Source: a virus | Lineage: Duplodnaviria > Heunggongvirae > Uroviricota > Caudoviricetes | Virus record (IMG/VR): IMGVR_UViG_2563366941_000003 | Direction: 5' to 3' (one strand) | DNA: 11,809 bases | Part shown: piece after piece, positions 2,679 through 9,980 of the stretch | Layout: every line of letters starts with the position of its first letter | Position numbering within the stretch: the first letter of the stretch is position 1 | The notes under the pieces: model-generated | Told to the model about the DNA's origin: nothing | Databases searched by the model: none | What the model saw: only the letters and a program-made list of their open reading frames with translations | Made by a program: the position numbers and the translations under genes

Positions 2679-3365
2679 TCACTCCTTCTCTTCTTTTCCG
2701 TAGTGGAGTTGGCCAATTTTGATAAGAGGGCGTCCCTGAGATTTGCGGTGTAGATTGGTATCGCGCAGAGAATACACACAGCCACAATATTCCTGCTGAT
2801 AGAATTTTTCGCGCTTGCTGATTTCAATCATACGGGACGAGCCGCCCTGCTTGCGCCAGTTATAATCCCAGTACACCATACCCGGATAATGCGCAACAGC
2901 TCGCCGCCCACACTCGTTAACCTGCTGCATATTTTTCCAGCGTGAAATGCCCAGTGAACTGCTGATCACACTGAAACCATTTTCAGCAGCGTACAACGCT
3001 GTCCGCTCAAAACGCATGTCAAAACACATGGTACAACGGATCCCCCTCTCAGGCTCCCATTCCATTCCTTTGGCACGTTCAAACCAGTTGTCGGTGTCGT
3101 AATCAGCATCGATAAACGGCACGCCGTGTTGTTCAGCAAAGCGAATATTTTCATCCTTACGAATTAAATACTCTTTCTGAGGATGAATGTTCGGGTTGTA
3201 GAAAAAGATGGTGTAGTCGATTCCCGAGGCCTGAAGCGCCTCCATCACTTCACCGGAACATGGAGCACAGCAAGAGTGCAGTAGTAGTTTGTTTGCCCCG
3301 TTTGGGAGCTCCAATTTAGGCCGTTTGAAATCAGCAATAGTCATAAATATTTTTATTGGGGTCAT
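2679..3365 (-). CDS. queH: QueH-like (DUF208) epoxyqueuosine reductase homolog
   Basis: N-terminal [11 protein letters not shown] signature plus CTMCFDMRF and EYCGC cysteine motifs typical of DUF208/QueH Fe-S proteins. Start ambiguous between ATG 3363-3365 and ATG 3342-3344; neither has a clear Shine-Dalgarno. Confidence 0.65.
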
Positions 3366-3959: not shown

Positions 3960-4730
3960 TCACTTTTCCGATACAACACGGCGGGAAGAATCAGTAATCT
4001 GTCGAACAATATCCCGGTGCTTGTTCAGCTCCCGCAGCGCGGCGCAGACTCGCTCCCACTTCTGAACATCACTTTTCGCCCTGCGCAGCGCCAGGTTTGC
4101 CCTGCGAAGGGACGGAAAAATCAGCTCATCTGCTTGCGTTTCGGTAAACGATGGCAACGGCTGCACAATGTCCGCCACAGTTTCTGTTTTAATTTCTTCC
4201 TGTGTTGCGGCTTCCCGGACTGGTAACGCAGCACCTGCTGGCTGAGGAAAGGCCTTACCATCACTTTCCGTTACCAGCGCGGCTTTCGGCTCTGCTGGTA
4301 AATTATCGCCCGGCATGCAGTAACGAAATTTACCGTTCTGATTAACGCGTGCCAGCCGCCCCGTTGCGGTTACCACCGCCAGCGTGGAAGCAACCTTGCG
4401 AGTACTGACACCGAACTTACCCGCCAGTTCCTCACACGTTTTAGCCCCATCCTGACCGATAAACTCAATCATCATGTCTGCGGTAACTTTTTGTTCGACC
4501 TCCCCGGTCAGCATATCCTGTGCTTCAGATTTTACTGGCCGCTCTTCGGTTACCCGGGATTCACCTTCGCCAGCCAGAAACCAGGTGTGACCAGTTTTAT
4601 CAACGACGCCTTTTCTTTTGAGTTCCCACAGCTCGTTGAGAACCTCTTCACGACTGATATCAAGTCGCGCGGCCAGTTCTACCGATGTGGCTTTTCCCAT
4701 TGCTTTCAGTGCGTCAAATACGGTTTCCAT
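3960..4730 (-). CDS. Hypothetical prophage protein with two winged-helix-like repeats
   Basis: ATG at 4728-4730 with GGAGG Shine-Dalgarno 8 nt upstream; the track start at 4748 is a TTG. Two internally similar HTH-like segments (around [28 protein letters not shown] and [22 protein letters not shown]). Confidence 0.6.
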
Positions 4731-8370: not shown

Positions 8371-8392
8371 TAGCTAACCAACGAGGCTAATA

Positions 8393-8794
8393 ATGGAATT
8401 TAAAGATTTACCAATGCCATTCCAGGAAATGGCAGCGAATGTGGTTCGCTCTCAACTGGCGACTCTTGACCTGAGTACTGTAGAAAAGGAAACCATCGAT
8501 ACTATATCCGGTAACGTGCGTCGTGCCTTTATAGGTCTGTATGAAGAGAAGCGCCTATTCGGCGGACAGAATTCGCCTGAAAACAAGAATCAAGCAAATG
8601 ATGAGAAGCTGAAACACATTATCGCCTTACTTTTGGAAGACGCAAAACGTCTACAGCAACTGGAACCAAATGCAGGCACAGAGGCCCGCATTTGGATTGC
8701 CATGAAATCACTCAAATGTGAAAGCAGTGATTATTTCAAAACAACAATTAAAACTACTCAACTTTCGGGAGAGCTACTGAAGAAATTGCCATAA
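8393..8794 (+). CDS. Hypothetical protein (133 aa), AT-rich gene
   Basis: ATG 8393 with GAGG Shine-Dalgarno 6 nt upstream. No family recognised. Visibly AT-richer than the flanks (by eye). Confidence 0.55.
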   Translation: MEFKDLPMPFQEMAANVVRSQLATLDLSTVEKETIDTISGNVRRAFIGLYEEKRLFGGQNSPENKNQANDEKLKHIIALLLEDAKRLQQLEPNAGTEARIWIAMKSLKCESSDYFKTTIKTTQLSGELLKKLP

Positions 8795-9032
8795 GAGCAT
8801 GGTCTTTCTCTTGTTCTGCAAGATGAGCATTAATACCTGGTATGGTTTTTTCAAATTTATCTATCTGTTGAATAACAACTTCGCGGTATACGTTTGTTTT
8901 TGTACCACCAAGCGCAGCCGTTAATGCAGAAAGCATATTTAGTATCATATCAGTGCGATATGAAAGAATCCTGATAGCTTCATCTTGTTCTTCAATAATA
9001 GATTGCAGGGCCTCAATTTGCTTTTTATCCAT
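8754..9032 (-). CDS. Hypothetical protein (92 aa), convergent with and overlapping the 3' end of the 133-aa gene
   Basis: ATG 9030-9032 with AGGAGG Shine-Dalgarno 5 nt upstream; the track start at 9071 is GTG. Helical/coiled-coil-like N-terminus MDKKQIEALQSIIEEQDEAIRIL. The 3' end overlaps the 8393-8794 gene by 41 nt. Confidence 0.5.
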   Translation of the reverse strand: MDKKQIEALQSIIEEQDEAIRILSYRTDMILNMLSALTAALGGTKTNVYREVVIQQIDKFEKTIPGINAHLAEQEKDHALMAISSVALPKVE

Positions 9033-9603
9033 TTCACCCTCCTGAGGGTTGGTAATTAAGGAGTTCTCCACTGGTCAGGTGGAGTGCGTGCGCCGGACAC
9101 GGGTGAGCATCCGGCACTGACAGTTTACTGAAAGGATATGTCCCTGAAAAGTCAGGGCATAACGCGAAAGCGCACGGCGAAATTGGTCTCTCTGTACGGT
9201 GTCGTTAAATTTAGTTCGACCGTGCGCTTCCGGTTGTGGCACTCCGCGAAATGGCGCGGCGGTAAGTATGGCTGGGGTTTCCTCCATTGCTCCAGAAAAT
9301 GCACCGGGTTGTCAGGTTGACCATACGCTTAAGTGACAACCCCGCTACAACGCCCTCTGTTATCAATTTTCTGGTGACATTTGGCGGTATCAGTTTTACT
9401 CCGTGACTGCTCTGCCGCCCTTTTTAAAGTGAATTTTGTGATGCGGTGAATGCGGCTATGCGCACGCGGAACAGTTAAAGCAGTAAGGCGGTATTTTACG
9501 GGCGTAACGAGCATCAACTAACCCGGCGTTAATTGTTAACTGGTTAACGTCACCTGGAGGCACCAGGCACTGCATCACAAAATTCATTGTTGAGGACGCG
9601 ATA

Positions 9604-9792
9604 ATGGAAACGTTATTACCAAACGTTAATACGTCTGAAGGTTGTTTTGAAATTGGTGTCACTATCAGTAACCCTGTATTTACTGAAGATGCCATTAACA
9701 AGAGAAAACACGAACGGGAGTTATTAAATAAAATATGCATTCTTTCAATGCTGGCCCGTTTACGTCCGATACAAAAAGGATGTGCACAATGA
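9604..9792 (+). CDS. Hypothetical small protein (62 aa), in the position occupied by kil-type genes in Rac/lambda
   Basis: ATG 9604 with GAGG Shine-Dalgarno 8 nt upstream. Stop overlaps the next start (ATGA at 9789-9792). Function assigned by position only. Confidence 0.45.
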   Translation: METLLPNVNTSEGCFEIGVTISNPVFTEDAINKRKHERELLNKICILSMLARLRPIQKGCAQ

Positions 9793-9980
9793 ATACAGCA
9801 TTTGCACTTGTTCTGACAGTTTTTCTTGTTTCCGGAGAGCCAGTTGATATTGCAGTCAGTGTTCACAGGACAATGCAGGAGTGTATGACTGCAGCAACCG
9901 AACAGAAAATTCCCGGTAACTGTTACCCGGTCGATAAAGTTATTCACCAGGATAATAACGAAATCCCGGCAGGTCTTTAA
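9789..9980 (+). CDS. Small secreted/membrane protein (63 aa) with N-terminal signal-peptide-like segment
   Basis: ATG 9789 overlaps the upstream stop. MNTAFALVLTVFLVSGEPV hydrophobic leader followed by a Cys-containing hydrophilic tail. The track's 81-aa ORF includes an unlikely upstream extension. Confidence 0.5.
   Translation: MNTAFALVLTVFLVSGEPVDIAVSVHRTMQECMTAATEQKIPGNCYPVDKVIHQDNNEIPAGL

Follow-up and report, generated by a model that had tools for sequence, protein, structure and literature searches.

The window, by which we mean the whole 11,809-nt stretch of DNA analysed here, contains a long interval in which no convincing gene can be recognised, and the question is what this interval does. 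A preliminary description, made from the letters alone, had placed it at 9072-9603, between an insert and "kil-like/recE genes", and suggested a structured RNA, a regulatory region for the downstream operon or the decayed remnant of racC/sieB-type genes. The right border of that interval is correct, but the left border needs to be shifted to 9033, since the annotation of E. coli VR50, a 100%-identical genome, starts the minus-strand gene on the left at the ATG of position 9032 and not at the GTG of position 9071; the non-coding span is then 9033-9603. The VR50 annotation carries no CDS across it and no ORF is conserved among its relatives, in agreement with its being described as ORF-poor. Positions 9033-9045 (minus strand) belong to the leader, with its ribosome-binding site, that precedes the inserted gene at 8754-9032, and homology to the Qin prophage of E. 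coli K-12 picks up again at 9046. From there to 9603 (plus strand) the sequence is the untranslated ydfC-dicF-dicB region of the dicBF operon, with 90% nucleotide identity to K-12 Qin from the end of ydfC to the start of dicB. The region is widespread, and sequence related to positions 8900-9800 was found in 4731 of 5426 complete E. coli genomes.

The window comes from an intact-looking lambdoid prophage integrated beside ompW. Its genes are arranged in the order YdaS/YdaT, HTH repressor, ydfA, ydfB, ydfC, two extra genes, the interval, dicB, ydfD, exonuclease, xis and int, and the assignments of ydfA and ydfC are supported by PHROG matches. K-12 Qin has the same small RNA (sRNA) with the same untranslated flanks, followed by dicB-ydfD and preceded by ydfABC and the same arrangement of a DicA-like repressor. 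However, it has been truncated by IS2, while the prophage beside ompW retains its exonuclease, xis and int genes, and the apical hairpin of the folded domain described below as module A has been replaced between the two, as have two loop regions. K-12 also lacks the two extra genes (8393-8791, plus strand; 8754-9032, minus strand), which make up a 675-bp insert between ydfC and the untranslated region. Both match PHROG families of unknown function, and PADLOC gave no match to a defence system for either.

The gene on the 3' side of the interval (ORF 9604-9792) matches the Pfam family DicB (PF05358) over its full length (E value 4e-38), and the second downstream gene is ydfD (Pfam DUF1482/YdfD, E value 9e-26), with the recE-like exonuclease gene coming only after it. 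The earlier label "kil-like/recE" therefore holds in the functional sense of a division inhibitor, but the gene is dicB rather than kilR, and ydfD stands between it and the exonuclease gene. The prophage is Qin-like, and not Rac-like, in its dicBF operon.

An Rfam scan of the whole window, the kind of covariance search that the preliminary description had recommended, detected DicF (RF00039) within the interval, at 9369-9420 on the plus strand, with 77.0 bits against a gathering score of 48 (E value 5e-16; model positions 1-52 of 52). The 53-nt RNA occupies 9368-9420, its 5' end being set by homology to the K-12 annotation (b1574), and 52 of its 53 bases are identical to those of K-12, the exception being an A for G at 9379 in the single-stranded 5' part. 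Its position also corresponds to that of the type locus in the VR50 and K-12 annotations, between ydfC and dicB in an operon of a lambdoid prophage controlled by a DicA-type repressor. The proposal of a structured RNA was thus well founded, with DicF lying among conserved processing and structural elements, and the interval is very probably the long untranslated region of a Qin-type dicBF operon, encoding DicF together with flanking processing stems. As this is the known dicF locus, the element itself is not new. DicF is known as a small RNA that inhibits cell division and, with Hfq, represses ftsZ, xylR, pykA and manX, and the RNA, its targets and the way RNase III and RNase E generate it have been the subject of work since 1989-1990 and once more in 2016-2023.

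The minimum free energy (MFE) and centroid folds of DicF coincide, and consist of 15 unpaired bases, helices of 7 and 5 pairs, and then U5. The two helices (9383-9389/9413-9419 and 9391-9395/9405-9409) form a two-part hairpin which, with the T5 tract at 9421-9425, constitutes an intrinsic terminator at 9383-9425 on the plus strand (-15.9 kcal/mol, z = -2.6), and compensatory GGUGG/CCACC variants of it are present in relatives. A simple terminator scan of the interval returned no site because its rule permits loops of only 3-8 nt; the terminator was recovered by Rfam and by folding. Immediately upstream on the same strand, a smaller hairpin at 9358-9379 (UGUUAUCA-AUUUUC-UGGUGACA; arms 9358-9365/9372-9379; fold z = -2.3) pairs with the 5' seed of DicF. 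In this folding model the RNase E cut at about 9367/9368 would fall within the A/U-rich loop of the hairpin, and the pairing suggests that the long form of DicF masks its seed.

The biogenesis of DicF has been worked out in K-12, where the operon is transcribed from a DicA-repressed promoter upstream of ydfA, giving a transcript of 1,146 nt when it stops at the dicF terminator and one of 1,608 nt when it reads through to ydfD (PMC10448788, PMC9438474). RNase E generates the 5' end of the 53-nt RNA, whose 3' end is set by the terminator (PMC10448788, PMC5069750), the 5' end of a 190-nt species depends on RNase III (PMC10448788), and a 72-nt form is the RNase III product of the read-through RNA (PMC5069750, PMC9438474). 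When these lengths are mapped onto the window, counting 190 nt back from the 3' end of DicF leads to about 9226-9232, which is the 3' strand of a stem-loop at 9165-9232, and counting 72 nt forward from 9368 leads to 9439, in the middle of the 5' arm of a long-range stem (9428-9448/9568-9588). The two published RNase III events were assigned to these stems, the two longest, because the expected product ends fall inside them, and the placing of each cut on a particular stem, judged from product lengths, would be accurate to about 5 nt either way. The RNases involved and the product sizes are carried over from the K-12 experiments by homology, so they should be read as predictions for this prophage; sizes or precursor stability may differ here, given the four extra bases in the apical hairpin of module A and the 675-bp insert upstream.

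Applied to the window, the K-12 pathway would run as follows. Transcription would begin upstream of ydfA, at the promoter under repressor control, and pass through the interval on the plus strand, and the majority of polymerases would halt at the intrinsic terminator (9383-9425). Cleavage by RNase III at stem 9165-9232 would leave a species of about 190 nt, made up of a four-way-junction domain (9233-9351) and DicF, from which RNase E, cutting near 9367/9368 in the A/U-rich loop, would free the 53-nt, Hfq-dependent DicF with its 5' seed exposed. Polymerases that read through the terminator would produce the dicB-ydfD message, and RNase III cleavage of the 21-bp stem 9428-9448/9568-9588 in that RNA would yield the 72-nt DicF and a dicB mRNA starting just 5' of its Shine-Dalgarno sequence. 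Host RNase III likewise cuts stem-loops in the polycistronic transcripts of other phages, as in the lambda N leader and at sites R1-R5 of the T7 early mRNA, where the cuts separate functional RNAs and reshape the 5' end of the downstream message. Those sites have no sequence relationship to the stems described here, and for dicB such an effect on translation would be a matter of analogy.

The 3' element, referred to here as module B (9428-9588, plus strand), is closed by the 21-bp long-range stem, detectable as an inverted repeat of 19 nt with 95% complementarity, and encloses three hairpins at 9452-9467, 9525-9551 and 9553-9567 (plus strand). MFE and centroid folds agree (z = -3.7). Among 14 diverse homologues, 94.6% of pair cells are paired. 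Compensatory change is seen in 7 pairs, where shuffles give 2.6 +/- 1.3 and only 3 of 500 reach the observed value. We infer that the long stem is the RNase III site that would provide both the 3' end of the 72-nt DicF (about 9439) and the new 5' end of the dicB mRNA. The start signals of dicB (9592-9606, plus strand) comprise a GAGGA Shine-Dalgarno sequence at 9592-9596 and the ATG at 9604-9606; the long-range stem stops 3 nt 5' of the former, and the MFE fold extends onto it (9420-9423 with 9592-9595). The 3' RNase III cut may affect the translation or stability of dicB mRNA.

The 5' stem-loop (9165-9232, plus strand) pairs 9165-9181 with 9215-9232 below an apex at 9182-9214 (-26.7 kcal/mol, z = -2.3). 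Among 41 relatives 95.9% of its pair cells are paired, the base being conserved while the apex varies freely. It is the probable RNase III site giving the 5' end of the ~190-nt species, although its approximately 16 pairs with two bulges are short for a classical RNase III substrate.

All four hairpins named in the preliminary description lie at the positions it gave. Two of them are parts of larger conserved folds: CCGCG-AAATGG-CGCGG (9244-9259, plus strand) is helix P2 of module A, and CGTTAA-N11-TTAACG (9527-9549, plus strand) is helix B2 of module B, within the enclosed hairpin 9525-9551. The other two sit in the more variable 5' spacer (9046-9157), which some relatives have exchanged as a whole. 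Hairpin GCCGGA-N12-UCCGGC (9092-9097/9110-9115; 9092-9115, plus strand) has an almost invariant stem and a variable loop among relatives with the same spacer, and folded alone it is no more stable than its shuffles (z = +0.1). Hairpin CCCUGA-AAAG-UCAGGG (9142-9157), which with a 4-bp extension spans 9137-9161 on the plus strand (fold z = -4.9), is only partly kept, with a compensatory CUCUGA/UCAGAG version in some relatives, the loss of two pairs in the K-12 type and GCCUG...CAGGC in its place in others. The same spacer contains, in the MFE fold, a further hairpin at 9066-9084 (plus strand; CUCCACU-GGUCA-GGUGGAG), and at that position relatives have other sequences that, judged by eye, appear to form hairpins too, e.g. 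CCACACG...CGUGUGG. The DicF terminator hairpin, the 21-bp long-range stem and stem 9165-9232 did not figure in the preliminary description.

The hairpins are therefore real, but "hairpin-rich" does not apply to their number, as perfect G+C hairpins occur at chance level. For a stem of 5 the count is five, where dinucleotide shuffles give 2.8 +/- 1.9 and a count of five is reached in 85 of 500; for a stem of 6 it is two against 0.95. Folding energy, on the other hand, is better than chance (z = -2.2 for 9046-9430, z = -3.7 for the stretch 9360-9625), as is that of hairpin CCCUGA-AAAG-UCAGGG. The comparison for the interval drew on IMG/VR and genome collections and took in 41 non-redundant homologues of Qin type, in which 93.8% of pair cells hold standard pairs against 34-46% when the partners are slid. 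Most of the changes are wobble-compatible, and both sides of a pair have changed in 15 cells against 4.1 +/- 1.6 in shuffles. This covariation is supportive rather than decisive, since the sequences are closely related to each other; genuine compensatory changes come from the deeper relatives compared for modules A and B. In all three comparative sets, 93-95% of cells are paired against 30-58% with partners slid, and the pairings are conserved in relatives, with compensatory changes, a point that the preliminary description had proposed to check.

The 5' domain of the 190-nt DicF precursor (9233-9351, plus strand), module A, folds as a four-way junction in both MFE and centroid structures (-48.2 kcal/mol, z = -2.1). 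On the plus strand, helix P1 pairs 9233-9240 with 9344-9351, helix P3 (9261-9305) carries a variable apical hairpin at 9272-9295, and helix P4 pairs 9306-9314 with 9334-9342. Among 69 distinct homologues 92.9% of pair cells are paired, and both-side changes occur in 30 cells against 5.2 +/- 2.0 in shuffles; the apical hairpin is retained with at least six different stem sequences. Module A has no match in Rfam even at E <= 10, and an assignment to C4, IsrK or other phage RNA families was rejected on that account. A tRNA-like origin was also rejected, as ARAGORN found no tRNA gene in the window and no tRNA-clan match appeared at E <= 10 in 9000-9650; the cloverleaf-like topology is a resemblance only.

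The pieces of the interval also occur separately in other phages. Module A is present in P1/P7, in Stx2c phages, in Ayreon and in Salmonella F1055, and the cassettes on its 3' side differ: they include the canonical DicF, a short variant, a changed-seed variant with a compensated stem, and several that are unrelated. Across 39 distinct downstream variants a U-run follows in every case, nearly always right after a terminator-type hairpin. DicF thus occupies a swappable sRNA slot between the conserved modules A and B.

One parallel is the leader of the ban operon of P1/P7, where a "dicF-like region" is already labelled in GenBank (AF234172, feature 68791-68892). Its module A is about 80% identical to that of the window, with compensatory changes in P4 and P3, although P1-type copies lack the outer P1 stem. 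An intrinsic terminator (GCCCAUCUUCGGGUGGGC followed by U6) comes about 25 nt after module A, and the body of this sRNA is unrelated to DicF, RF00039 being unmatched. The order continues with tRNA genes, module B and tciA/terB-tciB-tciC, whereas the window has no tRNA genes between its modules; tciA/terB-tciB are annotated by homology as tellurite/colicin resistance or cell-division inhibition genes. In P1 the module A unit lies behind the C1-controlled P1ban promoter and starts about 20-90 nt from it, so that there the long RNA would be a primary transcript and not an RNase III product, and the 190-nt species of K-12 corresponds to this would-be primary transcript.

It is possible, though we hold it only tentatively, that module A represents the 5' domain conserved throughout a wider family of temperate-phage long sRNAs or leaders, with a function of its own and followed by an exchangeable seed-plus-terminator cassette, of which DicF would be one of at least eight versions. 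On this proposal the K-12 190-nt species would be the ancestral full-length RNA, and in P1 the C1-controlled ban promoter would give rise to it directly. If so, module A would not be a mere processing by-product, and its function might be, for example, to stabilise or mask the sRNA until its release by RNase E, or to affect terminator read-through.

Module B has relatives of its own. It gives a sub-threshold Rfam match to STnc100 (RF02076; 30.9 bits against a gathering score of 47, model positions 21-154 of 206, E value 7e-5), and its copies in K-12, P7 and RCS47 score 34-43 bits, also below 47. The outer stem and a CCNGG-AGGCA-CCNGG hairpin are common to both, and we treat module B as a distant relative of STnc100 and not as a member. 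STnc100 has been linked to the prophage sRNA PasD and is prophage-borne (bioRxiv 10.64898/2026.05.13.724894). STnc100/PasD are stand-alone sRNAs described near Q and the lysis genes, whereas module B sits in the early-left operon as an mRNA leader and probable RNase III target.

A further version is found in Rac-type elements (Rac-SA53, Shigella phage 75/02 Stx and pPE4), which have the same order as here: a DicA-type repressor, small genes, a terminator-bearing sRNA, module B, a small division inhibitor and recE. They have Kil in place of DicB and a different sRNA cassette, and a bulged A and two wobble pairs occur in the 3' arm of their long stem. The kilR leader of this type is the architecture that the preliminary description had in mind. 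In Qin-, Rac- and P1-type phages alike, the small gene that comes after an STnc100-like module B is either a division inhibitor or annotated as one.

In another reading, A and B would be cis-acting transcription-control RNAs (nut/put-like antiterminators or a riboswitch-like attenuator) that set how often the DicF terminator is read through into dicB, exo, xis and int. The U-run behind module A in all 39 downstream variants would suit such a role, and in an intact phage the expression of exo, xis and int does require read-through of the DicF terminator. In addition, P7 and RCS47 carry the canonical boxA-like sequences UGCUCUUAC and UGCUCUUUC immediately 5' of the inner stem of module B, while F1055, Ayreon and some IMG/VR contigs carry GUGCUCUCUU and GUGCUCUCAG 5' of module A, and hairpin 9142-9157 has CCCUGAAAA in common with lambda boxB. 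However, the window itself has no boxA on the plus strand within the interval or near the promoter (YGCTCTTWA matches number 9 against 9.9 expected), and the boxB-like hairpin is not retained in relatives. With boxA at chance frequency, this hairpin unconserved and no N homologue annotated in VR50, a lambda-type nut site was rejected. So was a classical riboswitch, as by inspection no antiterminator pairing of module A with the terminator's 5' arm was seen to be conserved across cassette types. The put RNA of HK022, a V-shaped pair of stem-loops of about 70 nt with a triplex in stem I, lies just downstream of PL or PR and binds the zinc-binding domain of the RNA polymerase beta' subunit; compared by description only, it bears no evident likeness to the modules, module A being about 120 nt long with four helices. 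The stems are, moreover, already accounted for by the published RNase III processing, and we consider transcription control by the modules improbable.

Still less probable is an independent control region that would drive dicB and the exonuclease genes from a promoter and operator of its own. The repeat CGTTAA-N11-TTAACG at 9527-9549 does look operator-like, about 55 nt 5' of dicB, and an additional promoter upstream of dicB was suggested by one older study, as cited in PMC10448788. But a promoter scan of 9033-9603 on both strands gave no sigma-70-like site, and in K-12 no internal promoter was detected by primer extension or RT-PCR (PMC10448788). The repeat acts like a hairpin of RNA: in a Klebsiella phage it reads CGGUAG.../...CUGCCG, which makes two pairs compensatory, and it is part of a larger RNA fold that is conserved. 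This reading is largely refuted, and the "regulatory region" of the preliminary description survives in a different sense. The interval is not an upstream control region, as it is the interior of one operon with no internal promoter predicted here or found in K-12, but it does gate downstream expression, via the DicF terminator and the RNase III stem, which stops 3 nt short of the Shine-Dalgarno sequence of dicB.

That the interval should hold a small protein gene or a decayed one (a remnant of racC, sieB or kil, or else the ORF of 60 aa at 9138-9320) is the most doubtful of these possibilities, even though ORF 9138-9320 matches phrog_8854 over its full length (E value 5.5e-34) and several phage records annotate a "hypothetical protein" across homologous DNA, since its ATG is present in only 3 of 41 representative homologues, K-12 having ATT instead, and its AAGGA motif stops just 1 nt before the ATG. 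In most relatives the frame is broken by an early stop, after 15 codons in ten and after 2 codons in nine, or by a frameshift; indels are not multiples of three, and the variable columns (36/34/28 by codon position) have no third-position excess. Six-frame translation of the interval, a check proposed in the preliminary description, gave 12 segments of at least 25 aa; no Pfam match was obtained for the 6 scanned, phrog_8854 was the sole PHROG match among the 10 scanned, and nothing resembling sieB, racC or kil was seen. The suggested racC/sieB-type remnant thus falls away, and phrog_8854 is best read as a repeated mis-annotation of a conserved RNA region.

For annotation, a Qin-type dicBF untranslated region means that this stretch, left blank by PGAP in VR50, deserves the dicF label, that the next gene should be named dicB and not kil, and that overlying "hypothetical protein" calls, including phrog_8854, are probably spurious. 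It adds little new biology, as DicF, its targets and how RNase III and RNase E produce it have already been studied. The added value is comparative and modest, in that two RNase III-type stems are placed on the sequence. The architecture of module A, sRNA and module B, with a swappable DicF slot and modules that recur in P1/P7 and Rac-type phages, goes beyond the literature consulted and is a modest lead. This modular view would offer a testable handle on the reason for the 190-nt species, and on how phages control toxic division inhibitors.

The interval between module A (the four-way-junction RNA, 9233-9351) and module B (the STnc100-like RNA with its long-range stem, 9428-9588), which here holds DicF (9368-9420), is a slot for a variable small RNA. 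Window positions 9358-9425 were compared with the corresponding segments of 12 relatives (L009, L029, L006, L033, L109, L100, L106, L073, L038, L056, L133 and L135), and at least eight distinct cassettes, each consisting of a seed plus a terminator, were found 3' of module A, while module A itself is nearly invariant. One version of the cassette is a DicF whose 5' seed is altered and whose GGUGG/CCACC stem is compensated.

The 8-mer GCGCACG(G/C) or its complement occurs four times (9086-9093, 9170-9177, 9220-9227 and 9460-9467), which would allow other long-range pairings to form, such as one between the first and last copies; the last is unchanged in 14/14 module B homologues. The long stem-loop 5' of module A (9165-9232) is absent from one IMG/VR relative (L019, 1631-1760, minus strand), where the deletion appears to have joined one CGCGAAA repeat (window 9164-9170) to the other (9245-9251). 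A 60 aa ORF at 9138-9320 (plus strand) matches phrog_8854 (E 5.5e-34) and is not kept among relatives; this PHROG is probably a family of spurious ORF calls across the RNA upstream of dicF.

Relative to K-12, the window has an insert of 675 bp (8371-9045) after ydfC and before the dicF leader, which holds two convergent, overlapping genes, one of 133 aa (8393-8791, plus strand) and one of 92 aa (8754-9032, minus strand). Both fall in PHROG families of unknown function, and neither was matched by PADLOC. Any promoter for the minus-strand gene would need to be located within the conserved dicF leader, where promoter prediction returned none.

The RefSeq record of E. coli VR50 (NZ_CP011134), identical to the window, carries no ncRNA feature for dicF despite an Rfam score far above threshold, whereas the K-12 annotation includes one. 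A dicB-dicF locus is also present on contig JAGZPX010000007.1, which bears the label of a Veillonella parvula MAG, most likely through a binning error or Escherichia contamination. Elsewhere in the window are a hok/sok type I toxin-antitoxin (2436-2611 and 2286-2441, both minus strand; Rfam sok match, 120.5 bits), for which the VR50 genome annotates hokD, and, in the replication/nin-side region, a prophage-borne gene (2679-3344, minus strand) with the annotation epoxyqueuosine reductase QueH.

The boxA-like motifs GUGCUCUUACC, AUGCUCUUUCC, GUGCUCUCUUC and GUGCUCUCAGC adjoin the modules in relatives of the P1 type and in some lambdoid ones (L010, 2495-2510; L011, about 4020-4040; directly 5' of module A in L133, L134, L038 and L073); the corresponding places in the window read CGUGCGCUUCCGG and GUGAAUUUUGU. 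In P1 (L139, from AF234172; 2582-2760 of L139) and P7 (L010, 1075-1215 and 2501-2616), the C1-controlled P1ban promoter is followed directly by module A and then an intrinsic terminator, and module B lies immediately 5' of tciA/terB-tciB. Part of this arrangement already carries the GenBank label 'dicF-like region'. These positions give the order module A, small RNAs (tRNAs in P1 and P7), module B and then genes whose annotation, assigned by homology, is tellurite/colicin resistance or division inhibition, an order that parallels Qin and Rac.
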